A stretch of 32,000 bases of DNA from the NCBI GenBank assembly GCA_016699935.1, contig CP064992.1, positions 540,001 through 572,000 on the forward strand. Direction: 5' to 3'. The DNA comes from Candidatus Saccharimonadota bacterium (GTDB taxonomy: Bacteria > Patescibacteriota > Saccharimonadia > Saccharimonadales > UBA4665). Made by a program: the position numbers and the translations under genes. The notes below the pieces were generated by a model, which saw only the letters and a program-made list of their open reading frames with translations, had not been told where the DNA came from and ran no database searches. Each line of letters opens with the position of its first letter. The stretch's first letter is position 1. Of the stretch, positions 4,520 to 28,277 are shown piece by piece.

Positions 4520-6224
4520 TTGGTCGCGCAAGGTAACATGGTTCATTGGTCGACACCTAAACAGGCGCGTATAGTTGGTGGCGTATTGTTGGTCATTGTC
4601 ATTGCCCAGTGTGCGTATCCTGCAAATAGAACGTTACCTTTTGTGCGCCTTGATGGTAAGCGGATTGGCTATCAGTCTGGAAAACAGATTTCCCAGATAC
4701 TTATAGACCAGTACAGTAATGTGCCTCTTACGTTGCATGTAGAAGGGCCCGCCAAAGACCAGTCGCGAAAAACTACTGTGGCGCCCGCAGGCTTGCAACC
4801 AGACATCGACCGTATCTTGCATGACATCAAGGCCTACCCGTGGTGGCAGCGGCTGATCCCCTTTAGCGGGCTCGTCAAAGGACTCTCCCACAATCAACGG
4901 GTAGTAGTGGCATTTGACGAACAACGTTTTAAAGAATATGCCGAGGGTGAGCTCAAATCTTGCAAAGTTTATCCCAAAAACGCCGGAGTGAAGGTACTCG
5001 AAGGGGCCGTAGTGCTTGACGCTGCAAAGAAGGTCAGGAGTGTTCGCTCGATACGCTGCATAAGGAGCTGCAGACTGTTTCGCTTGAGCCAAATGGAATC
5101 CACGCCTACGTAAACGCCAATACAATCAAACCGCTTCGATCGGACAAAGATGTAGAAAGGAAATTGCAAGAGGCCCAGACGCTTACCGAACGCAAACTAT
5201 CATTGAAACTTGACGATAAAGATTATCCGGTCGCAAAGTCCACCCTCGCCTCGTGGCTAGTCATAGCCGAAGATCCTACAGATAAAAAGAAACTGACGAT
5301 TGATGTTGATACGAAGCTAATCCGCGACTATTTGACCGAAATGCAGAAGAAAATATACATTGCGCCAGGCGTTACGACAGTGCGCACGACAGACGGTGTT
5401 GAGACAGATCGCACGGAGGGTGTTTTTGGGCGCGGGCTTAACTTTACCGCTACGGCCGATGCGCTAAAAAAACAGCTCCTAGACGGTAACGGCATTGTAG
5501 CCGGCTCGCTTATTACGCTGTCTCCGCGAGTGGCTTACCTGCGTTCGTACTCCGCTTCGCGTGCCGGGTTGCAGGCGTTACTGAATGATATTGTCAAAGA
5601 TAAAGGTGATTATGCGATATCAGTACGTCTCAGCGATGGCACTACGGTGAGTGCCAATGGCACAAAACGGTATCATCCGGCAAGTACCTACAAACTGTAT
5701 GTGGCGTATAGTTTTCTGAAGCGAATTGAAAGTGGTGCTATCAAATGGGATGATGCGGCCACTGCGGGCAAAAAAGTATGAGCCAGTGCTTTGACGTCAT
5801 GATATTAAACTCCGACAACACGTGCGCGGAATGGCTCGGCGAGAAGATTGGCTGGTCCAACATTCAAAACGAAATCCGGGCTCTCGGACTGAGCAATACG
5901 AGTACGATTCGGGGGGCTATGTACTCCACGCCCGATGATGAAACGCTATTTTTACACAAACTGCAGTATGGCAACATTCTGAAAACATCCGAACGCGATC
6001 GTTTGCTCGATGTCTTGAAGCGCCAAATCTACAGGCAGGGGATACCTGCAGGTGTGCGTGTAACGGTAGCTGATAAAGTTGGGTTTCTCGACGGAAAACT
6101 TCATGACGCTGCTATTGTGTATGGCAGCAAAACGTATATGCTCACGATTATGTCGCAAGGAAGTTCGTGGGCGCAGATTGCCGATGCAGCGAGGCAGATT
6201 AATGAGCAGTTGAACAGAATGTGA
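4520..6224 (+). CDS. Membrane-anchored serine hydrolase with a class-A beta-lactamase/DD-peptidase-like C-terminal domain; two frame breaks (about 5030 and 5770-5775)
   Basis: Three track ORFs (4520-5113, 5164-5781, 5778-6224) read as one protein. An N-terminal TM segment (VGGVLLVIVIAQCA) is followed by the SxxK motif (PASTYKLYVAYSF), an SDN motif (MILNSDNTCAEWL) and a KTG-like DKVGF. The second break is repaired by adding an A to the run at 5770-5775. Confidence 0.65.
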
Positions 6225-6372: not shown

Positions 6373-7448
6373 TTATTTACTGACGTTGAATTTGAACTCA
6401 ACAACGTCTTCTGGCTGCATAACATAGGTTTTGCCCTCGGTGCGGACTTTTCCGGCGGCACGCGCATTGGGAAGGGAGCCAGCTACAATGAGGTCCTGGT
6501 AGTTTACGATGTCTGCGGCGATAAAGCCGCGTTCAAAGTCGCCGTGGATCACGCCGGCGGCTTGTGGGGCGGTCGCGCCACTAGGAATCGTCCAGGCTCG
6601 GACTTCTTTATCTCCAGCCGTGAGGTAGCTCTGGAGTCCGAGTGTGTCATATGCGGAGTGTATGAGCTGGACGAGACCGGATTCTTTCACATTGTAGCTT
6701 TCGAGTAGCTCGCGACGGTCGGCTTCGTCCAGGCTGCGAAGTTCGTCTTCGAGTTTGGCGCAGACGAAGAGTGCAGGGGCCGGTGAGACAAGTGTTTTCA
6801 CCTGGGATTGGAATTTTTCATCTGTCAGCTTCGCTTCATCTAGATTGAACAAATAAATTATAGGCTTCAGTGTCAACAGTTGCAGTTCCTGGCGTAGCCA
6901 GCTGCACGATTCATGATTCATAATTCCAGGTTCACTCCAGAGCGGACGTCCCTCGTCGAGGATAGATTTTACCTGTTCTACAAACTCTACAAGCGGTTTG
7001 AGTTTCGCATTTGCTTTCGCCTCTTTTTCGAGCCGGGGAAGTCGGTTTGTCACGGTCTGGAGGTCGGCCAGGACAAGTTCGGTATTGATAACATCGATAT
7101 CTTTGGCTGGGTCATGCGCGTCATCAACGTGTGTGACATTGGGGTCGTCAAATGCTCGTACGACTTGGACGATAGCGCCGCAGGTACGGATGTGCGCGAG
7201 GAATTGGTTGCCCAGGCCCTCACCCTTGCTCGCGCCAGCCACGAGCCCAGCGATGTCTACAAAGGTTACCGTGGCGGGTTTGATGGGCGCGATGTGGTAT
7301 AGCTCGCTCAGTTTTGAAGCCGCTCATCAGGCACGGGCACAATGCCGGTGTTCGGCTCGATGGTGGCAAATGGATAGTTTGCTGCCAAGATGTTGCTATC
7401 GGTCAGCGCATTGAACAGCGTCGACTTCCCAACATTCGGCAAACCCAC
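6373..7448 (-). CDS. ychF: Ribosome-binding ATPase YchF; native first 5 codons displaced to 28141-28156 by the island; one frame break at the T-run 7312-7315
   Basis: The minus strand reads (I)[45 protein letters not shown], then [42 protein letters not shown]... through to the TGS-like C-terminus ...[18 protein letters not shown]. In the YchF frame a TAG lies two codons upstream of the GTG at 7448-7446. Confidence 0.9.
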
Positions 7449-9052
7449 TATGCGCTATGCTCAACATCTAACCCTACCTTTTTTACAGTTAATGATGTTG
7501 CATACGCTGGAATCTTTCCGCATATTCTTACTTTCTCCTTCGTTGCTATTACTTTATCAACTATTTTACGTACCGTAAAAAGCTTTTCATCGTAGCCCAG
7601 ATTTTCTAGGTACTTCTTAAAAGGCTCTACAGACGATTCTAGATCTATCTCTTGCAGTTGGGCTAACTTATTCGCTTCTGGCTTGTTGATCAGGTCTAGC
7701 AGTTCTTTACGACGCCTTGCAACACTATTCATTTGATCTGTGTATACGACTTCAGACATAGTGTCCATGCCCCAAGCTTTCACGTAACGACGTTCTTCTT
7801 GTTCAAGTGCTTTTTTCTGCAAGAGTAGCTCATCTTTTTTAGGGCTTTGACCTGCAATGAGCTTTTTTTCTTCTGCGTAACGATCAAGCTGCTTCTGTAA
7901 TAGGGTAGGGTCTGTCATTAATTCGCAAAGTTTGGACCAACCTACTGCATCTAGTACCTGTACATTCACTCCTGCTTCAAAGCATGTGCGTGGCTTAGGG
8001 AACTTGAGTAGACGGTCAGTACAGCGGTAGTAGAAATGACCATTTTGACCCTCACCAGTACGGGAAGTACCGCAAGCACACTGTATCAAGCCACCGAACA
8101 AGTAAGGATTCTTCTTGAAGCGTTGACTTAGCTTACCGTTGCTCTTAATTTGAGATTGAACCTTTTGATACAGTTCGTCACTAATAATGCGTGGTGCTTC
8201 TACCTCTAGCCATTCATCACGTGGTCTGGTTTTACGACTACCTTTTAATGAATGACGGTGCTGGTATTTCTTCTGAGATTTAGCCATAGGATTTTTAGTT
8301 ATTACACTCTCAGACTTGTAGTAATAATGTTTACCAATATAGGTTTCGTTTTTCAACATACGGTGAATTGGACCATTCGACCATGTGTCACGCTTCTGTT
8401 TTTTTGGCGGTATGCCCAAATCGTACAAACGTCGTATGACTTCTTTAATAGAAACGCACTCAATGCCAATCCATTCAAATATCATTTGTACGACTTTGGC
8501 TTCTTCTTCGTTAATAACAAATTTGCCATTAATTTTGTCGTAACCTTTGCCTTTGATTGGCACATAATCATACCCGTAAGCTGCTTGATAGCCTAGTAAC
8601 TTCCCAGAGCGTACTTTATTGAGTTTCCCAATACGAAAGCGTTCAGAAATCTTCATACGCTCATACTCGTGGAACATTCCCATTACACCGCCCAAAAGCT
8701 TTTCTTCAGGTGAGACACCATTAATGTCGTGTAAGCTATGAAACTCAATGCCTAATTGGATTAGTTCCTGTATTACTATTTCCTGATGGAAGAATATACG
8801 GGCAAGGCGACCCTTGTCGTAGACGTATAAAATATCAAACTTCTTTTCAAGTGCGTCAGCTCGCATAAGATCAAGTGAGGGACGTTCTAGTATTGCACCT
8901 GACCAACCCTCGTCAATATATATACAGCTTTCCAGAAGGGTATTACCGTCAGCTTTAATTTTTGGCTTAATCTCCGAAAGTTGGTTTTGTACAGTTTGCT
9001 CTTCTTTTTGAAGTTCGGTACTAACCCTTGCGTAAAGTGCTGCACGTAACAT
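7448..9052 (-). CDS. Large serine recombinase (integrase)
   Basis: Intact 534-aa ORF. The resolvase-type N-terminus is [12 protein letters not shown], with the catalytic Ser context. A recombinase domain follows, then a zinc ribbon ([20 protein letters not shown]) and a C-terminal coiled-coil-like region. The stop TAG sits exactly at the island-host junction. Confidence 0.9.
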
Positions 9053-9267
9053 TACTTTGACTCCTTTGTTTTTTTGGTACTGCGTTTTGATATGAATGAC
9101 TCTAGTGCAATCTGGCTTATACGATAGCCTTTGCCTAATTTAAGGGCTTCAAGATCACCGTTTTTTATATATGTAAGTACACTTTGCCAGTGAAGTTTAA
9201 GTAAATCTGCAACTTCCTGTACTGTGTAATATTTCTTGTCTATCATTATAATCTCCATTATAAACAT
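9052..9267 (-). CDS. Excisionase-family (MerR-like) helix-turn-helix DNA-binding protein
   Basis: YYTVQEVADLLKLHWQSVLTYIKNGDLEALKLGKGYRISQIALESFI is the typical excisionase-type HTH signature. Its stop overlaps the recombinase start. The true start may be the internal ATG (MIDKKYY...). Confidence 0.7.
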   Translation of the reverse strand: MFIMEIIMIDKKYYTVQEVADLLKLHWQSVLTYIKNGDLEALKLGKGYRISQIALESFISKRSTKKTKESK

Positions 9268-9287
9268 TTATAAATAAATATCAATCG

Positions 9288-9425
9288 TTACTCCTGAGAA
9301 GCACTCTCAATGTGTTCGAAATATTTATCAAACAAATAGTTGAATGCTTCTTCTACAGTGCGAGTATCGCCGTCATCGACGTACTCGTACTCAATTTCTG
9401 GTGGTAGTGCGGTCTTTCGTGACAT
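9288..9425 (-). CDS. Small acidic hypothetical protein (45 aa)
   Basis: My own translation is MSRKTALPPEIEYEYVDDGDTRTVEEAFNYLFDKYFEHIESASQE. It fills the gap between the primase-helicase and the excisionase genes on the same strand. I recognise no homology. Confidence 0.3.
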   Translation of the reverse strand: MSRKTALPPEIEYEYVDDGDTRTVEEAFNYLFDKYFEHIESASQE

Positions 9426-9427
9426 GT

Positions 9428-19363: not shown

Positions 19364-21543
19364 TTTCAGCCCAGACTAATATTCAGAAGATCTTAAATGC
19401 ATCAGAGACTTATTATGAGATACCAAATTTTCAGCGGCCATATGCATGGCAGACAGGTAATGCGAACGAGTTTCTAGTAGATCTTGAAGACAGCGTAGCA
19501 AAACGCAAAAATCATTACTTTGGCACGGTCGTTTTAGTTGAAGAGACTGCAAGTACTTATTCAGTAGCTATCATTGACGGACAACAGCGTGTCACTACAT
19601 CGCTACTCATGGTAACGGCTATATATCATCTAGTAAAAAAAGACCCGTCACTAATTGAGAATCCTGAGACAACACCAGAGCTAATACGTGATCGCTACCT
19701 GTTTAATGCAAACATCGACAAGAATAAAGTGAAGCTTCGTACTGTTACGACTGACAACCAGATCTTGCAGCACATTTTTGATAAAGACGGTGAAGAGTCA
19801 CGACTAGAGCCACGAGAACGAATGAGTAACATCTATCAGGTGTACTCGACCTTTCGTAAGTACTTTTCGACTCGCAAGGGTCTAGATAAATACATCGAAG
19901 GACTAAAGTTGTTTGAAGTCATTTCAATTACTCTCAATGGTAATGACGATAATCCGCAGAGAGTTTTCGAAAGTATAAATTCAACGGGTAAGCCACTAAC
20001 AGACGGTGACAAAATCCGTAACTTTGCTCTCATGCTAGGTAACGACAAGCTACGCAATCATGTATACGACAATTATTGGTCGATCATTGAAGAATCACTT
20101 GTGGATTCGAACAAAGATAATATTACTGATTTCTTTCGTAGTTACATCATGTCGAAACGACAGGCTATTGTTCGCTTAGATGCGGTTTATCCTGAGTTTA
20201 AGAAGCAGTTTGATAGGCAGGTAGGAGAGTCACAAGAAGAAGTCAAAATTGACGCTTTCTACGCTGATATAGTTGAGTCGTTGGGCTTCTATAGGCTTCT
20301 GAAGCTCATAGATACTGATGATTTTGAAAGTCAGTATAAGGGCATTTGTGAAACCATATTTAAGATGCGGTATCTTCAGATTGACCTATATATTCCTTTC
20401 GCTATGAACGTATTGCGTCATCACGCAAATGGCGAACTTACTGATCAACAATTCGAAGATGTGTTTAAGCTAATCGAGACATATTTCTCACGTCGTATCG
20501 TGAGCGGTATTGCTACAACCAGTGTGGACCGATTCTTAGCTTCATTACACAAAGATATTCTTAGTTATCAGAAAGATAGTCCTGACGCAGATTATGTCGA
20601 TGTTCTTCGTTATATTCTTCTAAATCGTATTGGTCAAACCCGTATACCTGATGATGCAGAATACGAAAATGCAATTCGTACTCGTGAAGCATATTACCAA
20701 AGGAATTCATTCCTTATTTACGTTCTTACAGCGGTTGAAGGTACGTCTAAAGAAGCTGTTCATACCTTGCACCAAATCTCAGACGCTAAGTTGAAATTGT
20801 CTATCGAACACGTAATGCCGCAAACACTCACAAGCAGGGACTGGCAAGAGATGCTAGGTGATGATTACGAGCGAATTCACCGTGAATATTTGCACACACT
20901 GGCAAACCTAACGCTCACAGGCTACAACTCTGAATACTCTAATCGGCCTTACGCAGATAAGATGCATCTTGAGATCAAAGATAAAAAGACTGGCGAAGTT
21001 CAGAATGTAGGATTCGCTGACAGTAAGCTTCCTATAAATGTGTGGATAGCGAAACACGATGTCTGGAATGAAGATACATTGAAAGAGCGTCAAGCATGGT
21101 GGGTAAAGAAGCTTAAAGACACATGGTCATTCCCAGTTACTTCGTTCAAACCTATCGAAGAAGACACATCTGTGTACTTACTTGAAGCTACAGACTTGAA
21201 GGGTAGGAGCATACGCTCAGTAGATGTATTTGGTGAAAAGAACTCTGTTACTACATGGTCAGAAGCTTTAGATACCATCACAGAGTCGATATATAACCGA
21301 AACCCTGAGTTTATCGAAACCATTAGTAATGATGAGTGGCTCTCGAAAATTATTCGTCAGGATGCGAGTGCGTTCAATAGCAGTGCAGAGATATTAGACA
21401 CGGGATATTTCGTGGACACTGGAAATGACACAAATACTAAGCTTCGTATTATCAACGCACTAGGTAAGCTATTCGGTCTGACTCAGGATGATATAAAGGC
21501 AGAATTGACCGCTGACAAGCATATCGAAGAAGACGAAGAGTAG
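19360..21543 (+). CDS. GmrSD-like DUF262/DUF1524 protein (type IV restriction-family architecture) with an extra C-terminal region of roughly 190 aa
   Basis: Intact 727-aa ORF. The DUF262 motifs are YEIPNFQRPYAW and IIDGQQRVTT. The DUF1524 His-Me-finger-like block is LSIEHVMPQT...LHTLANLTLTGYNSEYSN. Its start overlaps the upstream stop (ATGA). Confidence 0.85.
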   Translation: MISAQTNIQKILNASETYYEIPNFQRPYAWQTGNANEFLVDLEDSVAKRKNHYFGTVVLVEETASTYSVAIIDGQQRVTTSLLMVTAIYHLVKKDPSLIENPETTPELIRDRYLFNANIDKNKVKLRTVTTDNQILQHIFDKDGEESRLEPRERMSNIYQVYSTFRKYFSTRKGLDKYIEGLKLFEVISITLNGNDDNPQRVFESINSTGKPLTDGDKIRNFALMLGNDKLRNHVYDNYWSIIEESLVDSNKDNITDFFRSYIMSKRQAIVRLDAVYPEFKKQFDRQVGESQEEVKIDAFYADIVESLGFYRLLKLIDTDDFESQYKGICETIFKMRYLQIDLYIPFAMNVLRHHANGELTDQQFEDVFKLIETYFSRRIVSGIATTSVDRFLASLHKDILSYQKDSPDADYVDVLRYILLNRIGQTRIPDDAEYENAIRTREAYYQRNSFLIYVLTAVEGTSKEAVHTLHQISDAKLKLSIEHVMPQTLTSRDWQEMLGDDYERIHREYLHTLANLTLTGYNSEYSNRPYADKMHLEIKDKKTGEVQNVGFADSKLPINVWIAKHDVWNEDTLKERQAWWVKKLKDTWSFPVTSFKPIEEDTSVYLLEATDLKGRSIRSVDVFGEKNSVTTWSEALDTITESIYNRNPEFIETISNDEWLSKIIRQDASAFNSSAEILDTGYFVDTGNDTNTKLRIINALGKLFGLTQDDIKAELTADKHIEEDEE

Positions 21544-21545
21544 AC

Positions 21546-22697
21546 ATGGATACGTCTGGATACTTCGACCTAACAGTTCCAGAGAATAATATTGATTCGC
21601 TGACTATAAATCAGCAAGATCATTTTGATTGTAGTCTAGTGAATAATGCTACGGGCGAAACATACAAAGGGTTCATTCTTGCAAAATCGCCACAGGGCAA
21701 TAATTTAACGGTGTGTGATACAGAATTCAAACGTTCTGGCACTGACAATAAGTATCAGCCCCGACTGACATTTCGTCGAGTAGATGATGAGTTTAATGAC
21801 GTTAATGCTCCCGCAGGTTCTAAAAGTCGTAGGATACCGTTCTCAGACGGCTCAGATGGTTATCGGGAGTTTTGGAAAATGGTGGCATTTCTATTTAAGT
21901 TCAAAGAGACGATCGACTTCGGTGAGTTTGATGGAACCTACCAAGTAATATCTGCTGAACAGCTAAAAGAGTATATGAATAATGCTTCTAATAATGACGC
22001 AATTATTAAAATGGCTGATGAGCTTGAAATTGAAGTCTCTGAGTTACTTAGAACAAAATCTACAATTAGACTACTAAAGACCTATAAAGAAAAATTAGAA
22101 GAATTTATCGAGACAAATGCTTCTGAAACAGATGTTCAAAATTGGCTTGATGAAGACGGTCACAAGTACAGGCAGCAGCGATGCATGATATTTGGACTTG
22201 AGTATATAGACTTTCAGCGTGAAGGTTCGTTGAGTTCGAAAAAATTCGATGTACTTACTAGGGTAGGCTCTAAGTATGTGGACCACGTGCTTATTGAATT
22301 GAAAAGCCCAGCAGATGATATATTTGAAGTTACTCAATCTAGCAGTATTAATAACCCTACTAGCACCTATCAGATTCACAAGCATCTAGCACGTGCTATA
22401 CCTCAAATTCTAGAGTATAAGAGCACACTTGAAGCAAAGCCAGCAGGTGATGCGGAGTTGGAGGAATTAGGTATTAAAGGGCAAGCTCATATCGGGAAGT
22501 GCATTATTGTAATTGGGAAACATAGTGATGATGCACGTTGGAAACAGAATCGAGAAAATCTAGTACGCTCTCTTGGATCTACACTAGAGATTTGGACATA
22601 TTCAGAGCTGTTCAATAAGCTTTCCTCAACGATTGAAAATCTAGAACGAATTAAAGAGCACGAAGAACCTGCTGAAGATTTATCGGACTGGTTTTAA
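21546..22697 (+). CDS. Shedu-like DUF4263 nuclease-family protein with an unrecognised N-terminal domain
   Basis: Intact 383-aa ORF. The C-terminal half has a PD-(D/E)xK-like pattern typical of DUF4263: ETDVQNWLDEDGHKY...KKFDVLTRVGSKYVDHVLIELKSPADDIF...LARAIPQILEYK...GKCIIVIGKHSDD...LEIWTYSELF. Confidence 0.7.
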   Translation: MDTSGYFDLTVPENNIDSLTINQQDHFDCSLVNNATGETYKGFILAKSPQGNNLTVCDTEFKRSGTDNKYQPRLTFRRVDDEFNDVNAPAGSKSRRIPFSDGSDGYREFWKMVAFLFKFKETIDFGEFDGTYQVISAEQLKEYMNNASNNDAIIKMADELEIEVSELLRTKSTIRLLKTYKEKLEEFIETNASETDVQNWLDEDGHKYRQQRCMIFGLEYIDFQREGSLSSKKFDVLTRVGSKYVDHVLIELKSPADDIFEVTQSSSINNPTSTYQIHKHLARAIPQILEYKSTLEAKPAGDAELEELGIKGQAHIGKCIIVIGKHSDDARWKQNRENLVRSLGSTLEIWTYSELFNKLSSTIENLERIKEHEEPAEDLSDWF

Positions 22698-24178
22698 TGA
22701 TGATGCAACTATCAAAATCTGATTACATGCTTTATCTCGCACACCCTGCATGGTTGTGGATGAAAAAACATGCAAAGACCTTACTGCCAGCTATAGACCC
22801 TGCAACACAAGCAATTTTCGATACTGGTCACGAATTCGAACAGTACGCAGAAGCTTTATTCCCAAGTGGTGTCACGCTTGGATTTAGTGATTATGATGAG
22901 TATCTTTCATTACCTGAGAGGACCACACGGGCACTAGACGATGGAATTCTCACGATATTTCAGGGTAGATTTGAGCACGAACAACTAACTTTTATTTGTG
23001 ATGTGATTCAGGTCGTTGATGGTAAAGAGATTGACCTGATTGAGATTAAGTCGAGTACAAGTGCTAAGCCTGAGCATATTACAGACCTTGCGTTTCAGAT
23101 GTTCGTTTTAGAAAAGTGTGGGTATACCGTAAGAAATGTAGCGGTAGTACACGTCAATAATCAGTATGTTCGTAATGGTGAAATTGACGCTAAGCAGATC
23201 ACGTTTAGAACTGATGTCACTGATGCAGTTAAGGCTGCGAAAGATTTTACGATAACAAAGATCGACGAAGCATTAGAAACAATGTCTCTGACTGAATGCC
23301 CAGATGCATCTCCTCTACATGCGAGCACTAAATCATTTGGTGATTGGTTGCAAATTTACAAACACTTAAAGAACCCAAAGGCTGGAAGTATTTACGACTT
23401 ATGCCAGATGGATGCGAAGACATTAAGTAACCTTCAACAAAATAACATTACACACGTAAAAGACATTCCACCTGACTTTGTTCTGAAGCCAAAGCAACGA
23501 CTTCAAGTTGAGGCACTTCGACAGGGAAGACCTACGATCAGTAAAGACAAAATCAAGTCATTCTTAGATTCATTTAGCTACCCTCTATACTTTTATGATT
23601 ACGAAACATTAAGTAGTTTAGTGCCTTACTTTGATGGTCTAAAGCCTTACCAACAGTTACCGTTTCAATATTCGATTCATATTTTAGACAGCCCAGATGC
23701 AGAGCTAAGACATGAAGAGTTCTTGCATCGTGATAGTGCAAATCCTGCTGAAGCACTAACGAAATCTCTCGTCTCACATATAGGGGATGAGGGGACAGTA
23801 CTTGCGTGGAATATGGGTTTTGAAAAGAGCTGTAACACATTACTTGGTACGATAGTGCCAGAGTATGCAGATTTCTACAGTAAGCTTAATGAAAGAATTG
23901 TAGATCTAATGATTCCTTTCTCGCAGAATTGGTATGTTGATGCTGATTTTTGTGGGAGTGCATCTATCAAGAAAGTCCTACCCGTACTCGTACCATCTCT
24001 GTCACACAAGGACCTAGATATTTCTGATGGTAGTTCAGCTCAGAGGCTATGGATGGAAGCTATTCTTGATGGGAAGCGACCTGACGAAAAAGAAAAGATT
24101 CTTAATGACTTGCTCGATTATTGTAAGCTCGACACACTTGCTATGGTTGAAATATTTAACGTTTTACGAAAAATATAG
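22697..24178 (+). CDS. DUF2779 domain protein (RecB/Cas4-like PD-(D/E)xK N-terminal part and an RNase-H-fold-like C-terminal part)
   Basis: Intact 493-aa ORF. The N-terminus LSKSDYMLYLAHPAWLWMKKH is the typical DUF2779-family start. It also contains EIDLIEIKSSTS and the C-terminal YFYDYETLSSLVPYFDGLKPYQQLPFQYSIHIL. Its start overlaps the upstream stop (TAATG). Confidence 0.7.
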   Translation: MMMQLSKSDYMLYLAHPAWLWMKKHAKTLLPAIDPATQAIFDTGHEFEQYAEALFPSGVTLGFSDYDEYLSLPERTTRALDDGILTIFQGRFEHEQLTFICDVIQVVDGKEIDLIEIKSSTSAKPEHITDLAFQMFVLEKCGYTVRNVAVVHVNNQYVRNGEIDAKQITFRTDVTDAVKAAKDFTITKIDEALETMSLTECPDASPLHASTKSFGDWLQIYKHLKNPKAGSIYDLCQMDAKTLSNLQQNNITHVKDIPPDFVLKPKQRLQVEALRQGRPTISKDKIKSFLDSFSYPLYFYDYETLSSLVPYFDGLKPYQQLPFQYSIHILDSPDAELRHEEFLHRDSANPAEALTKSLVSHIGDEGTVLAWNMGFEKSCNTLLGTIVPEYADFYSKLNERIVDLMIPFSQNWYVDADFCGSASIKKVLPVLVPSLSHKDLDISDGSSAQRLWMEAILDGKRPDEKEKILNDLLDYCKLDTLAMVEIFNVLRKI

Positions 24179-24214
24179 TGGTGCGTGTGGTGGGGTAGCA
24201 ATTATCTGGAAAAA
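24170..24214. repeat. Left copy of a perfect 45-bp direct repeat (aaaatatagtggtgcgtgtggtggggtagcaattatctggaaaaa)
   Basis: Identical to 27794-27838. It overlaps the last three codons and the stop of the DUF2779 gene. Confidence 0.95.
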
Positions 24215-24313
24215 GTGAACGAACATTAACCATACAAACACACTGTAGGAGCGTCCCAGAGGTCATAGGGGGTTTTTAAGACAAAAGATGAGATATTCAC
24301 TGTGCTTGCTTAG

Positions 24314-24327
24314 TACCCCTAGGGGTA
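24314..24327. promoter_or_regulatory. CsoR-type operator palindrome TACCCCTAGGGGTA overlapping a -10-like TATATACT
   Basis: A perfect 14-bp GC-core palindrome lies 14 nt upstream of the csoR-family start codon. It matches the general TAC-C4..G4-GTA architecture of CsoR operators. Confidence 0.6.
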
Positions 24328-24340
24328 TATACTTTAAGAC

Positions 24341-24625
24341 ATGAGAATAGACATAAAAAAGCGGGCAAGTCACCGAACTAAAATCATTGAAGGTCAGATT
24401 AAGGGCTTGCAGAAGATGATAGATAAAGAAGATTACTGCATGGATATTCTGACCCAGTCCTTAGCCATTCAAAAGTCATTAGCTTCGCTTCACAAATTAG
24501 TATTAGAAAATCATATAACTACTCACATCACAGATATGCTTGCTTCTGGTAAGGAGAAGGAACAAACCAAAGCTCTTGAAGAACTATTGAAACTATACGA
24601 GCTTAATAACATTCGGGGTAAATAA
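24341..24625 (+). CDS. csoR: CsoR/RcnR-family metal-sensing transcriptional repressor
   Basis: Intact 94-aa ORF. RTKIIEGQIKGLQKMIDKEDYCMDILTQSLAIQKSL...LENHITTHI is the family signature. The ligand positions read Cys-His-His, not the Cys-His-Cys of classical Cu(I) CsoR. Confidence 0.85.
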   Translation: MRIDIKKRASHRTKIIEGQIKGLQKMIDKEDYCMDILTQSLAIQKSLASLHKLVLENHITTHITDMLASGKEKEQTKALEELLKLYELNNIRGK

Positions 24626-24627
24626 CT

Positions 24628-24993
24628 GTGAAGTATCTAAAAGTACTTAAAAGAGTGGCTTTGCTGCTTGCGGTGTTACTCCTAAATTCTGTGACTTTTG
24701 CTGCACATAGTTCAGCTATGCCAGTAATGGCTCACGATATGGCTGGGATGAACCATAAGGCTAATGACAATACCTCTTGTGCTACACAGTGTCGCACAGC
24801 CGTTTTTAACAAAGAAGATGCAATCAATTCACGTTACGATGAAGAAGATGACGAACCAGTCGTGCCTTTTTACTCACAGAACCAAGCTTGGCTATTTAGT
24901 GATACGCATGTAACTCAAAAGTTGTATGCAGACTCGATAAAGCCACCGCCTAAGATACCAATATATATTCTCTACGGTGTCTTTAGAGTTTAG
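24628..24993 (+). CDS. Secreted Met/His-rich hypothetical protein (GTG start)
   Basis: A signal-peptide-like N-terminus (KRVALLLAVLLLNSVTFAAHS) is followed by MPVMAHDMAGMNH. It lies between the repressor and DUF305 genes in the same orientation. Confidence 0.5.
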   Translation: MKYLKVLKRVALLLAVLLLNSVTFAAHSSAMPVMAHDMAGMNHKANDNTSCATQCRTAVFNKEDAINSRYDEEDDEPVVPFYSQNQAWLFSDTHVTQKLYADSIKPPPKIPIYILYGVFRV

Positions 24994-25043
24994 GATTCGT
25001 TTGTTAATTCAAACCGTATCTTAAACGTAAATCAGGAGAACCT

Positions 25044-25709
25044 ATGAAGAACAAGAACAACATAATCATCGTGGCAATAGTCGCAATCGTTGCCATTGCG
25101 GGGGTAAGTATCTACGCCCTTAATAAAGATAACGATATGATGGACGGCAACAATATGATGGGTGGCAACTCGTCACAACAAGCAAGTACTGTCACTGTAG
25201 ATAAAGACTCGGCTGATTACAAAATGTACAGCGAACTTAAGGGCGAAGACTATGACCGAATGTTTCTAGCTAATATGATTGCCCACCATCAAGGTGCGGT
25301 TGATATGGCTAAGCTGGCTCTAACTAATGCTAAGCACCAAGAAATAAAAGATATGGCTAACAATATCATCACGGCTCAGACAAAAGAGATTGGCGAAATG
25401 CAAAGCTGGCAGACAGCTTGGGGCTACCCTGCAAGCAGTGGTGAAATGATGATGGATCACTCCTCAATGGGAATGATGGACGATATGGCTGGAATGACGA
25501 ATAAGCTAAAAGGTTTAACGGGTGATGAGTTTGATAAGGCCTTTTTATCTTCAATGATTGAACACCACCAATCAGCTATAAATATGGCGTACTCAGGTAA
25601 AACCAATGCACAACATCAAGAAGTAAAAACGCTCACAGTAGCTATCGTAGACGCACAGAGTAAAGAGATTACTCAAATGAAGCAATGGCAAAAGGAGTGG
25701 GGCTACTAA
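25044..25709 (+). CDS. DUF305 domain protein (two repeats), membrane-anchored or secreted
   Basis: The motif is duplicated: DRMFLANMIAHHQGAVDMAKLAL...EIGEMQSWQTAWGY and DKAFLSSMIEHHQSAINMA...EITQMKQWQKEWGY. An N-terminal TM segment is present. Confidence 0.8.
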   Translation: MKNKNNIIIVAIVAIVAIAGVSIYALNKDNDMMDGNNMMGGNSSQQASTVTVDKDSADYKMYSELKGEDYDRMFLANMIAHHQGAVDMAKLALTNAKHQEIKDMANNIITAQTKEIGEMQSWQTAWGYPASSGEMMMDHSSMGMMDDMAGMTNKLKGLTGDEFDKAFLSSMIEHHQSAINMAYSGKTNAQHQEVKTLTVAIVDAQSKEITQMKQWQKEWGY

Positions 25710-25722
25710 GCCAGGAGTATTT

Positions 25723-27735
25723 ATGGATCATTCGCACCACGAACACCAGCATATGGAACATCAGGAACACGATAAACACGCTGGTCATTCAGTGGCTATG
25801 TTTAAGGATAAGTTTTGGTTGTCACTAATACTGACGATACCCGTCTTGGTTTATTCCGAGATGATACAGCAGTGGTTACACTTCACACCGCCAGCATTTC
25901 CAGGCTCTCAATACGTTCCATTTGTGTTTAGTACCATCATCTTTTTCTATGGTGGTATGGTGTTCATCAAGAGTGCGATGGGCGAATTAAAAGCTAGGTT
26001 GCCAGGTATGATGACTTTAATCAGCCTGGCAATCATCACGGCATACGTCTATAGCGTTGCGACACAGTTCTTTATCGGTGGTGAAGGCTTTTTTGGGAAT
26101 TAGCCACACTGGTGACAATTATGTTGCTTGGTCATTGGCTAGAAATGGCTTCGGTAGCAAAGGCTGAAAATGCTTTAGACGCAATCTCAAAGCTACTGCC
26201 AGATAAGGCTGAAAAGTTAGTTAATGGAAAACCAAAGATGGTTTTAGTAAGCGAACTAAGTGTTGGCGACTTGGTATTAGTAAGACCAGGCACGAGAATA
26301 CCGATTGACGGTGTAATAACAGACGGGACATCATCAATAGATGAGGCTGCTATCACTGGCGAGTCAAAACCTGTAAGTAAAACCGTCAATGATAAGGTTG
26401 TTGCTGGAACCGTAAATCAAGACGGCTCAATCAAAGTTAAAGTTACGGAACTTGGAGATGATACTGCACTTGCAGGAATTATGCGACTTGTTGCAGAAGC
26501 TCAAAGTTCAAAATCTAATGTGCAAGTATTGGCGGATAAGGCAGCTTTCTACCTAACCATCATAGCTATTGTTACAGCTATCGTAACGTTCATTGTGTGG
26601 CTAGTTCTTAAAGATGTTGGCTTTGCATTAGAGCGGTCAGTAACAGTTTTGATAATTGCTTGTCCTCACGCTCTTGGCTTGGCGATACCTTTAGTTGTAT
26701 CAATCTCTACTACACTGTCAGCGAAGAACGGTTTACTAGTACGAAAGCGATTAGCTCTTGAATCAGCACGTAAGCTAGACTGGGTGCTATTTGATAAGAC
26801 AGGTACTCTAACTAAGGGCGAACACGGCGTAACTGATATATGGGCAACCAAAGGTTACTCACAAGAAGACGTACTGCACCTAACAGCGAGCCTTGAGCAA
26901 AACAGTGAACATATTGTTGGTAAGGGTATCGTTCGTAGGGCAGAATCAGACCACGTACACCTTGATAAGGTTGCTGACTTCAAAGCATTGCCAGGCTTAG
27001 GCGTACAAGGAACTTTACACGGCAACGAAGTGTATATTGCAGCCAGCTACCGCTATATAGAAGAAAATAAGCTTACTGTTCCTAAAGAAATTGCCAATGC
27101 CGTAAAGCAAGCTGCCAAAGAGGGTAAAACCGAAGTTTATTTGATTACTAATAAAAAGGTAATTGGTGCTTTGGGTTTGGCCGACATAGTACGGGAAGAA
27201 TCGAAACAAACCATTAAAACCCTGCGAGAAATGGGGATTAAGACGGCTATGATCACTGGGGACACCGATGAAGTTGCTGCCTACGTCTCAAAGCAACTAG
27301 GACTAGACCAGTACTTTGCAGAAGTACGACCCGAAGATAAGTCTGCGAAAGTGAAAGAGTTACAAAAACGGTCAAAAGGTTGCAATGGTTGGTGATGGTA
27401 TAAATGATGCACCCGCACTTACCCAAGCAGACATTGGCATAGCTATCGGTGCCGGTACGGATGTCGCTATAAAATCAGCGGATATTATCTTGGTAAAGAG
27501 CAATCCTCAAGACGTAGTTAAAGTAATTAACCTGTCAAAGGCTACGTACAAGAAGATGACACAGAACTTAATATGGGCAACAGGCTATAACATCTTCGCA
27601 ATACCTCTGGCCGCTGGCGTATTGTACGGTGCTGGCATAGTGCTTGCACCTGCACTTGGCGCGATTCTAATGTCAGCATCGACTGTAGTAGTAGCCTTTA
27701 ATGCACAGCTTCTACGTAGAGCAAAGCTCAGTTGA
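25723..27735 (+). CDS. copB: P1B-type copper-transporting ATPase of CopB type (His-rich N-terminus, CPH motif); two frame breaks (T-run 26089-26094 and A-run 27364-27368)
   Basis: The N-terminus [22 protein letters not shown] is His-rich. Further motifs are TGES, the transmembrane CPHALGLA, the phosphorylation site FDKTGTLT, and [12 protein letters not shown]. The three track ORFs join when one base is added to each homopolymer. Confidence 0.9.
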
Positions 27736-27793
27736 TAATAGAGAGTAGCTGAGATAGTTAATCGACAAGCATTGTCTTATCATTTAGGCTTGT

Positions 27794-27838
27794 AAAATAT
27801 AGTGGTGCGTGTGGTGGGGTAGCAATTATCTGGAAAAA
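27794..27838. repeat. Right copy of the perfect 45-bp direct repeat
   Basis: Identical to 24170-24214. It lies 58 nt after the copB stop. Confidence 0.95.
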
Positions 27839-28140
27839 AACTCCCGTGGCCTTGCTCAATTATATTTCGAGTAAAAGATGAACGACATTTACAACATACA
27901 TTGCAGACTAGTAAAGGTCTGGTGATAGTTAAATCAGTAGGAATGACAGTTCACCATTTACCACCAGCAGTTTCTTGTAGTTCTTTAATCTGTTGAGGCG
28001 TATAGCCTCGTGTTCTTTTATCTAAAGGAGGCATCGAGAAGGTTATATCAAATGGTATTGTTGCGTCTTGTGAATACCAATGCTTAGCATCTAACCCAAC
28101 CTCTCTATCAGAATTAAGTTGTGTTGTGTCTCTTGTATCG

Positions 28141-28156
28141 CTATAGAAAGACTCAT
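28141..28156 (-). other. ychF: Displaced native 5' end of ychF (ATGAGTCTTTCTATAG, MSLSI-) at the right island junction
   Basis: Fusing 28156-28141 to 7447 and downward on the minus strand gives [22 protein letters not shown] -10-like TATACT (28171-28166, minus strand) lies 9 nt upstream of the ATG. Confidence 0.6.
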
Positions 28157-28277
28157 GATGTTTTCAGTATAACAGAGGAGGGCGAGTCTTTTATAGGGTG
28201 AGTTTATGATTGTGAGTTTAGATAGTTTTTTTCGCTCGCACTCTCCTGTATGATGATATGAGGAAATCATAAGCATT

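Follow-up and report, generated by a model that had tools for sequence, protein, structure and literature searches.

The stretch analysed here, 32,000 nucleotides from the chromosome of a Candidatus Saccharimonadota (Saccharibacteria) bacterium (contig CP064992.1 of assembly GCA_016699935.1, positions 540,001 to 572,000 of the forward strand; hereafter the window), contains an integrated island of ~20.7 kb at ~7449–28140. Our reading of this island, which we hold with good confidence, is that a large serine recombinase (LSR) encoded at one of its ends inserted it into the housekeeping gene ychF, that the island rebuilds the start of ychF from within the 3' end of the recombinase gene, and that the attachment site of the element, attP, lies inside that same gene. 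The point of insertion is, in all likelihood, codon 6 of ychF. The best relatives of the interrupted ychF are found in Saccharibacteria metagenome-assembled genomes, and a GC profile of the window shows the island clearly, with a GC content of ~0.40 (0.38–0.43) at ~7.45–28.14 kb against ~0.49 (0.46–0.53) in the flanks.

An earlier description of this DNA, made from its letters alone (the original prediction), had already proposed an island of this size. Its boundaries were correct to within 9 bp, its choice of the first codons of ychF as target, with no tRNA gene involved, is supported, and the bases that it quoted from the minus strand were verified: GTG GGT TTG CCG AAT GTT GGG AAG from 7448, the in-frame TAG upstream of this GTG at 7457–7455, and ATG AGT CTT TCT ATA G at 28156–28141. 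Its register for the att sites and its account of the fate of ychF have had to be revised, as set out below.

Register of the att junctions

The window was compared with 135 fetched loci and with 120 YchF homologues, of which 119 could be classified at the N-terminus. In each of the 27 Saccharibacteria relatives examined the protein begins ...L(S/Q)I(G/A)IVGLPNVGK, two residues more than the MSLSIVGLP of the original prediction. The closest YchF homologue (P0121, 90 % identical) has the N-terminus MSLSIAIVGLP..., and its contig (L132) holds the nearest uninterrupted site, CTCTTGGTATACTGATTAGTC followed by ATG AGT CTC TCT ATA GCC ATT GTA GGC TTG CCG. When stub, attP-type and attL junctions are compared, the true shared block is ATAGCGATA, located at 28144–28136 and, on the ychF side, at 7458–7449, where it contains an extra C at 7452. 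The attL of the closest recombinase relative, L081 (95 % identical), reads GAGCATAGCGATA, as in 13 loci altogether, and that of the window reads GAGCATAGCG-C-ATA/GTGGG, the extra C being a departure from L081 confined to the window. On this comparison the repaired attB of the window is predicted to be ...TCTATAGCGATAGTGGGTTTGCC... and its attP ...GAGCATAGCGATACAAGAGACAC....

A replacement ychF start within the recombinase gene

The last ~30 nt of the LSR gene (...K V G L D V E H S) appear to be dual-coded, in that a second frame holds a Shine–Dalgarno (SD)-like motif, an ATG and six ychF codons. Across the family the junction in this second frame reads ATG YTR AGC ATH GSN ATH GTN GGN, that is MLSI(A/G)IVG, after AAGGTNGGG. 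A scan of metagenomes for the P-arm motif gave 45 loci, 36 belonging to the system and nine unrelated. Of the 22 loci with enough sequence, 21 had ychF as a complete open reading frame (ORF) running from the island ATG, the exception (L086) having a late frameshift; ten further loci, which reach the contig end without a stop, stand outside this count. The called YchF proteins are 357–364 aa long, and in L081 and L083–L085 their ATG lies 56 nt inside the LSR ORF. Element-derived codons thus keep the target ORF intact across the junction in the family, but not in the window as sequenced, owing to the C at 7452. The statement that ychF has lost its promoter and start codon fails for the family, which has the island start; in the window alone the extra C breaks the supplied frame. 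We conclude from these ORFs that the island family normally keeps ychF working, by way of a putative replacement start in the end of the LSR gene.

ML-type N-termini, ML(S/A/T)I(G/A)I, were present in 21 of the 120 YchF homologues. Their carriers include the megabase records CP064993 and CP065016 (1.21 and 1.26 Mb), both without the recombinase; CP065016 retains only about the last 70 LSR codons, and L002 and L088 are similar scars. In L002, which shares with the window a stub ORF whose stop is directly followed by an ATG (Table 1), that ATG opens an intact ychF. Genomes therefore exist in which the island-derived start is the sole start of ychF and the ORF is intact.

What such a start has to replace can be judged from uninterrupted relatives, 20 of 24 of which have a TGnTAnAnT box ending 6–10 nt before the start codon. 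A -10 box so near the ATG suggests that native ychF mRNA is probably leaderless or almost so, and with promoter and start this close, insertion at codon 6 cuts ychF off from both. The sigma-70-like promoter upstream of the HTH_17 gene and the LSR gene (Table 1) could drive ychF by read-through when the island is integrated. We also observed a second type of island-derived ychF start, common to two unrelated recombinase-free contigs (L088, ~8560–8610 in reverse-complement coordinates, and L135, 9960–10000), which comes with an extended -10-like box of its own, TGTTATKAT, and is preceded by a short ORF (ATG GAA AAG ACT GAT TGG GTT AGA TGT TAA) overlapping the ATG.

The recombinase, its attP and the detached tail

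The original prediction placed a large serine recombinase beside the junction, and Pfam supports this: Resolvase (PF00239, E 4.6e-27) covers residues 4–151, with a YARVSTELQ motif at residues 7–15, and Recombinase (PF07508, E 1.4e-18) follows the catalytic domain at residues 182–305. Zn_ribbon_recom (PF13408) scores 18.9 bits in the window LSR, below its cut-off of 25.3, and is precomputed for many homologues. Against solved structures, phmmer matched the catalytic domain of the TP901-1 integrase (3bvp, 2.6e-08); this match covers the catalytic domain only and is therefore uninformative about the tail described below. Among 697 LSR homologues at E ≤ 1e-3, C-termini down to 47–50 % identity end in ...VGL(D/N)(V/A)x(H/Y)x, followed by an out-of-frame reading into ychF (e.g. 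P0023 ...VGLDVKHSNRRPSECRQINAI and P0069 ...KYRHRRPSKCRQINTLQ). The gene immediately upstream, whose stop overlaps the LSR start, encodes an HTH_17 protein and is kept at the same position in L081, L083 and L086; its product is a candidate directionality factor or regulator.

At attP-type junctions the LSR ORF does not stop at the att site but runs ~40 codons further, into HW(Y/H)xQDATIPFxITFSMPPLDKRTRGYTPQxIKELQETxGGxW-stop. A continuous ORF of LSR body, att units and tail was found in L121, L131, L097/L101 and the fragments P0242, P0249, P0253 and P0262. In the window, tblastn located the tail at the far end of the island (28073–27954, minus strand), and joining the two island ends in silico gives a predicted 595-aa recombinase. 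The tail bears the marks of a coding sequence: among six lineages its differences fall on the three codon positions as 121:62:249, codon changes are 189 synonymous vs 119 non-synonymous, and its frame is the only one open in all six. These junctions place attP within the coding sequence of the recombinase, so that integration would detach a conserved 40-aa tail and swap the LSR C-terminus. The swap itself is evident from the sequence, and an effect on activity is putative. Both Pfam-confirmed domains remain on the body, which makes this a tail swap, not the destruction of a gene.

A search of 1.84 billion representative proteins with the tail peptide returned mostly short far-end ORFs, and its two long matches were low-complexity repeats; full-length free-form recombinases would be hidden within the 50 % clusters, and their absence from this search is accordingly uninformative. 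The L097/L101 junction was considered as a circular attP junction and rejected, as it is chromosomal, beside a truncated recombinase and flanked by a stub and a native-type ychF; attP-type junctions are hence no proof of circles. Across the start of the tail-coding region lies an inverted repeat, CATTGGTATT-N13-AATACCATTTG (28049–28082, minus strand), the arms of which co-vary in L091 (GGTATG...CATACC). It is off-centre relative to the junction and was set aside.

Two att units and the position of crossover

Between the stub and the tail the window carries a 63-bp module (Table 1), which is present between LSR and ychF in ~19 loci, follows the native stub at the far end of L091, as in the window, and occurs alone as a scar in L002. 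Together with the P arm adjoining the LSR it makes up a 63-bp att unit in tandem duplicate. Aligned with each other, the units match at 44 of 66 positions and score 19, shuffled sequences giving -8.7±4.4 and at most 11. The arrangement at the stubs tracks codon 6 of the target. Stubs followed by the module have an Ala codon (GC.) in five cases out of five (the window, L002, L091, L001 and L128), and stubs joined straight to the tail have a Gly codon (GG.) in four out of four (L088, L101, L135 and a second L091 site). The wobble base of Ile-5 on the stubs is host-specific, and that of codon 6 is host-like (A/G/T) at attL junctions and C or T at attP-type junctions; these two patterns narrow the site of exchange down to bases one and two of codon 6. 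From the nine related stubs we infer that crossover occurs at GC in unit 1, the unit used in the window (attB Ala), and at GG in unit 2 (attB Gly). A crossover in the second Ile codon, at its AT, was dropped, given the codon-6 wobble bases just described and the fact that all tails encode HW(Y/H). One locus, L124 (1035–1130 of Ga0209542_10189458), has the LSR, both att units and the P arm followed by CAAGTACGGGGCTCC..., with neither ychF nor tail, and may represent an off-target insertion or a rearrangement.

ychF as an insertion hotspot

Several loci seem to have been entered more than once. In L001 the true native stub is ~1.9 kb upstream of the present ychF start and is accompanied by two older tails, L135 has two layers, and L091 and L101/L097 are nested. 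Island far ends resemble that of the window in L091 and are of the stub-to-tail type in L088, L101 and L135. New islands apparently insert into the ychF start re-created by a previous island, and, judging from the scars and layered remnants, ychF would be a hotspot in which earlier insertions are recorded. The ychF promoter region and first seven codons (MSKSLEIGI) occur twice in L101 (880–1000) and L097 (1520–1650), both in reverse-complement coordinates, the copies being ~85 % identical by eye and ~3.5 kb apart, around decayed island remnants.

Weighing of the evidence

Several points weigh against the account given above. It is from ORF conservation that ychF is judged to be transcribed and translated on island signals; no empty site of the same species was found, the best YchF being 90 % identical; and none of the attP-type junctions proves a circular form, one of them at least (L097/L101) being chromosomal. 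As regards the crossover, a palindromic dinucleotide such as GC is atypical for LSRs, the L091 stub (GCA) lacks the base expected under the GC model and is a partial misfit, and a search for dyad symmetry in 22 attB sequences gave no signal above chance (~5.5 of 22 expected). Finally, the junction in the window does not restore ychF owing to the extra C, which, being an insertion outside a homopolymer, is unlike the other frameshifts here and may be real.

The last point has to be set against the quality of the sequence. At least eight genes are split by single missing bases of A/T homopolymers, including those for the ATPase, the MmeI-type restriction–modification (RM) enzyme, the helicase, the primase, the beta-lactamase-like protein, TlyA and YchF (sites include 26085–26095, 27360–27370, 5765–5775, 15520–15535, 16425–16440, 10131, 11271 and 7312–7315). 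Apart from the extra C, every frameshift that can be placed, whether in a host or an island gene, is a base missing from or beside an A/T run. This pattern looks like the signature of an unpolished long-read or otherwise error-prone assembly, and apparent pseudogenes in the window are for that reason untrustworthy. Two defects separate the island ATG (7467–7465) from a working ychF, the extra C at 7452 and a missing A at 7315–7312. The former puts the supplied ATG out of frame and makes the recombinase ORF stop at the junction; it is an inactivating mutation of recent date or else an error of the assembly. If it is real, the only start left to ychF would be GTG 7448, overlapping the TAG, with most of the strand before the P-loop lost.

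It is accordingly quite conceivable, though we lean the other way, that element and site are as described but that ychF is truly inactivated in this genome, the locus decaying and GTG 7448 yielding at best a truncated YchF by TAGTG stop–start coupling. The non-homopolymer nature of the C insertion, so different from the missing bases at A/T runs, speaks for this, as does L086, where a frameshifted ychF shows that such a state is possible at an occupied site. However, the remainder of the window's ychF is conserved (88 % identity to L001), its one additional defect being of the homopolymer type; 21 of the 22 other loci have an intact ychF; and the sequence is visibly error-prone.

A different alternative concerns the two att units, which might be functionless leftovers of earlier tandem integrations and deletions, with the Ala/Gly correlation reflecting shared ancestry. 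Layered remnants are indeed common (L001 has three tails and L135 has two, and the ends in L091 and L101/L097 are nested), recombinase-less scars are known from L002, L088 and L135, and the nine stubs are phylogenetically non-independent. Yet the module leaves the LSR frame open and is conserved in ~19 loci of many samples, LSR lineages ~50 % identical have module-like duplications that differ in length, and the codon-6 split is perfect. We regard the leftover explanation as rather doubtful, while taking it seriously.

The model of the original prediction, with crossover in a 4-bp ATAG, an attB of ...TCTATAG followed by TGGGTTTGCC, an attP with a tandem CATAGCG and ychF merely disrupted and left with neither promoter nor start, is very improbable. 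The bases on which it was built are present, and with the extra C the ychF frame is unrestored in the window, the sole in-frame start being GTG 7448, which overlaps the recombinase stop. But the attR ATAG (28144–28141) had been paired with the second attL ATAG (7451–7448), 6 nt off the true register, and a 4-bp match is at chance level (1/256 per register). The join gives MSLSIVGLP, which had been called a canonical N-terminus and which loses the two codons for (G/A)I from the native MSLSI(G/A)IVGLP. Incompatible ychF 5' ends had been named as evidence that would count against this attB, and they are the rule: none of the 119 classifiable homologues lacks (G/A)I. A degenerate pattern for the proposed empty site matches none of the 135 loci, and 26 loci fit once two extra codons are added to it; these codons are present in the nearest empty site and absent from the model's form, TCTATAGTGGGTTTGCC. 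The window's own stub codes for MSLSIAI, not MSLSI. Equally, the implied attP is absent from all 135 loci, 13 of which have GAGCATAGCGATACAAGAG, shorter by 1 nt, and ychF is restored across the family. As for an assembly chimera in which island and ychF flanks were joined artificially, the many indel errors might bring it to mind, but the recurrence of the same two junctions, LSR–ychF and stub–island, across independent contigs and samples by the dozen, including long contigs with the same host synteny, leaves it scarcely any credibility.

Proposed mechanism and relation to known systems

Our current working hypothesis is that the LSR inserts the island at codon 6 of ychF and in doing so would remove the native promoter and start, while the island end would supply an SD-like motif, an ATG and MLSI(A/G)I codons by which the ychF frame is rebuilt. 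The rebuilt gene would presumably be transcribed with the HTH_17–recombinase operon. In the free, attP form, the LSR ORF would pass through the 63-bp att-unit duplicate into the 40-aa tail, which integration would move to the far end. More tentatively, and with less conviction than for the insertion and the rebuilt start themselves, we suggest that this LSR family is built round its target: the dual-coded 3' end, the attP in its own ORF with long and tail-less isoforms as a sensor of integration state, possibly biasing direction, and the GC and GG units widening host range. What is new here is an attP inside an LSR gene, tandem att units that track the attB Ala/Gly codon, and the ychF hotspot scars, in a combination of known principles.

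Use of ychF as an LSR integration site was reported earlier for actinobacterial pipolins (PMC11551731). In the passages of that paper that bear on the site, ychF is named from gene context, and those passages describe no att sites, no replacement of the 5' end and no att site in a recombinase gene. To judge from them, pipolins and the island are alike in ychF target, LSR class and defence-rich cargo; pipolins encode piPolB, whereas the island ORFs scanned with Pfam and PHROGs gave no PolB match, its replication gene is a Toprim primase, and its host phylum is Saccharibacteria. No related LSR was found within 6 kb of ychF in ~50 actinobacterial loci fetched, and our literature search found no paper joining Saccharibacteria and ychF.

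Other LSR elements are known to insert in protein-coding genes, namely A118 in comK, SPbeta in spsM and skin in sigK. They share with the island the Resolvase and Recombinase domains, to which the island LSR would add a putative zinc-ribbon/coiled-coil region, an LSR gene at the element end beside the junction, an apparently very low attP/attB identity and a protein-coding target. However, they split the target, which regains function only on excision, whereas the island family re-creates the 5' end and has attP inside the LSR ORF. Closer in outcome is SXT, which reportedly provides a new 5' end and promoter for prfC. Like the island, it occupies the 5' end of a conserved housekeeping gene of the GTPase family and leaves that gene functional, but it inserts via a tyrosine recombinase (PMC2791158), with near-identical attP and attB, whereas the island uses a serine recombinase and a replacement start that appears to be dual-coded in the LSR gene.

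An att site within the recombinase's own coding sequence, such that integration alters the product, has precedents among tyrosine recombinases. In Myxococcus phage Mx8 (intP/intX) the att site is inside the integrase gene. The SSV-type archaeal 'suicidal' integrases are likewise constructed, and recombinases disrupting the gene by which they are encoded have been said to be exclusive to archaea (PMC8371274). The SSV1 gene ends up as two halves, neither of them functional, whereas the island would lose a C-terminal extension of ~40–61 aa beyond the LSR domains; being a serine enzyme whose domains stay on the body, it is analogous to the SSV/Mx8-type recombinases and not a member of them. Lastly, a pneumococcal prophage remnant lies between dnaN and ychF, where integration lowers ychF expression and excision restores it (PMC6375853). 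It resembles the island in having an integrase gene directly upstream of ychF, but the pneumococcal site is intergenic (PMC8637289) and that of the island is in coding sequence.

Saccharibacteria and other bacteria of the candidate phyla radiation (CPR) have tiny genomes and poorly known mobile elements, and defence and metal-resistance genes appear to be commonly carried in them by this family. An apparently leaderless housekeeping gene would tolerate integration at its extreme 5' end because one stretch of DNA codes for both the LSR end and the new gene start. If the tail swap affects activity, it would be the serine-recombinase counterpart of systems with att sites in their own gene. If the two-unit reading is true, host range would be widened across Saccharibacteria, and two att units of differing dinucleotides under one enzyme would be directly useful, LSRs with defined attB and attP being sought as genome-engineering tools.

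Features, cargo and neighbouring genes

Coordinates are collected in Table 1. The core of the element consists of the Toprim primase, small ORFs, HTH_17 and the LSR, and its cargo varies among relatives. PADLOC assigned the MmeI-like RM enzyme to REase_MTase_IIG (4.5e-132) and the GmrSD-type nuclease to Orf5/HEC-06, and the cargo helicase has a weak PbeA-like match. The frameshifts in the copper ATPase fall at T6/A-runs. Genes for capsid, tail, portal and large terminase were absent from the island ORFs scanned with Pfam and PHROGs, and IMG/VR, scanned with the ychF-side junction and with the P-arm motif, gave no match to either. With its primase, excisionase-like HTH protein, LSR, and defence and copper cargo, the island is very probably an integrative element without phage structural genes.

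Table 1. Features of the island and its junctions (window coordinates; aa, amino acids)
Feature	Position	Strand	Remarks
ychF body, Val8 (GTG 7448-7446) to stop	6373..7448	-	one base missing in A-run 7315-7312
Large serine recombinase (LSR), 534 aa	7448..9052	-	TAG 7450-7448 overlaps ychF GTG
attL identity block ATAGCG-C-ATA	7449..7458		extra C 7452; putative crossover GC 7455-7454
P arm of att unit 1 in LSR 3' end	7449..7480	-	SD-like AAGGTAGGG, ATG (7467-7465) TTG AGC ATA GCG (C) ATA = MLSIAI, in another frame
HTH_17 (excisionase-family) protein	9052..9267	-	Pfam 2.2e-11; PHROG 'excisionase and transcriptional regulator'; stop overlaps LSR start
Sigma-70-like promoter, TTGATA-16-TATAAT	9257..9284	-	11/12 matches; upstream of HTH_17-LSR-(ychF); consensus match only
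Toprim primase gene, split in three ORFs	9428..11603	-	single 720-aa ORF in L081
Defence cargo: type IIG MmeI-like RM (pieces), helicase pieces, T5orf172, GmrSD-type nuclease, Shedu SduA, DUF2779	13893..24178	+	Pfam, PADLOC
Copper cargo: CsoR-type repressor, small secreted protein, DUF305, CopA-type P-type ATPase in three frameshifted pieces	24341..27735	+	Pfam
Detached LSR 3' end: GLDAKHW + YSQDATIPFDITFSMPPLDKRTRGYTPQQIKELQETAGGKW + stop	27951..28097	-	would be joined to LSR body only across attP
63-bp module: P' half of att unit 1 + P arm of att unit 2, GGTTGGGTTAGATGCTAAGCATTGGTATT	28073..28135	-	recurs in relatives
Stub ORF MSLSIAIQETQHNLILIERLG	28091..28156	-	stop TAG, then directly ATG CTA AGC ATT GGT ATT; arrangement also in L002
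attR identity block ATAGCGATA	28136..28144		stub, attP-type and attL junctions compared; putative crossover GC 28141-28140
Orphaned native ychF 5' stub, ATG AGT CTT TCT ATA GCG ATA = MSLSIAI	28136..28156	-	same N-terminus as P0121
Native ychF extended -10 box TGTTATACT	28166..28174	-	9 nt before native ATG

A 76-aa HTH protein encoded at 12717–12947 has a weak likeness to small terminases (PHROG 4.1e-06; Pfam Sf6_terminase below cut-off), which could hint at a satellite-like lifestyle or could merely reflect an HTH regulator. In L083 (467–1756 of Ga0377230_0000012), which has the same LSR–ychF junction, a reverse transcriptase and a bAvd-like gene represent diversity-generating retroelement cargo.

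Host gene order beside the island (ychF, beta-lactamase-like, bPH_3, Crp, phosphoribosyltransferase, TlyA, GIY-YIG where present, EF-P) is that of CP065016 and CP064993. The GIY-YIG nuclease gene, at 277–615 of the window between EF-P and TlyA, is found also in CP065016 (L133) and is missing from the same position in CP064993 (L135) and L083; it would seem to be an insertion that varies, and is possibly mobile, within the host flank.

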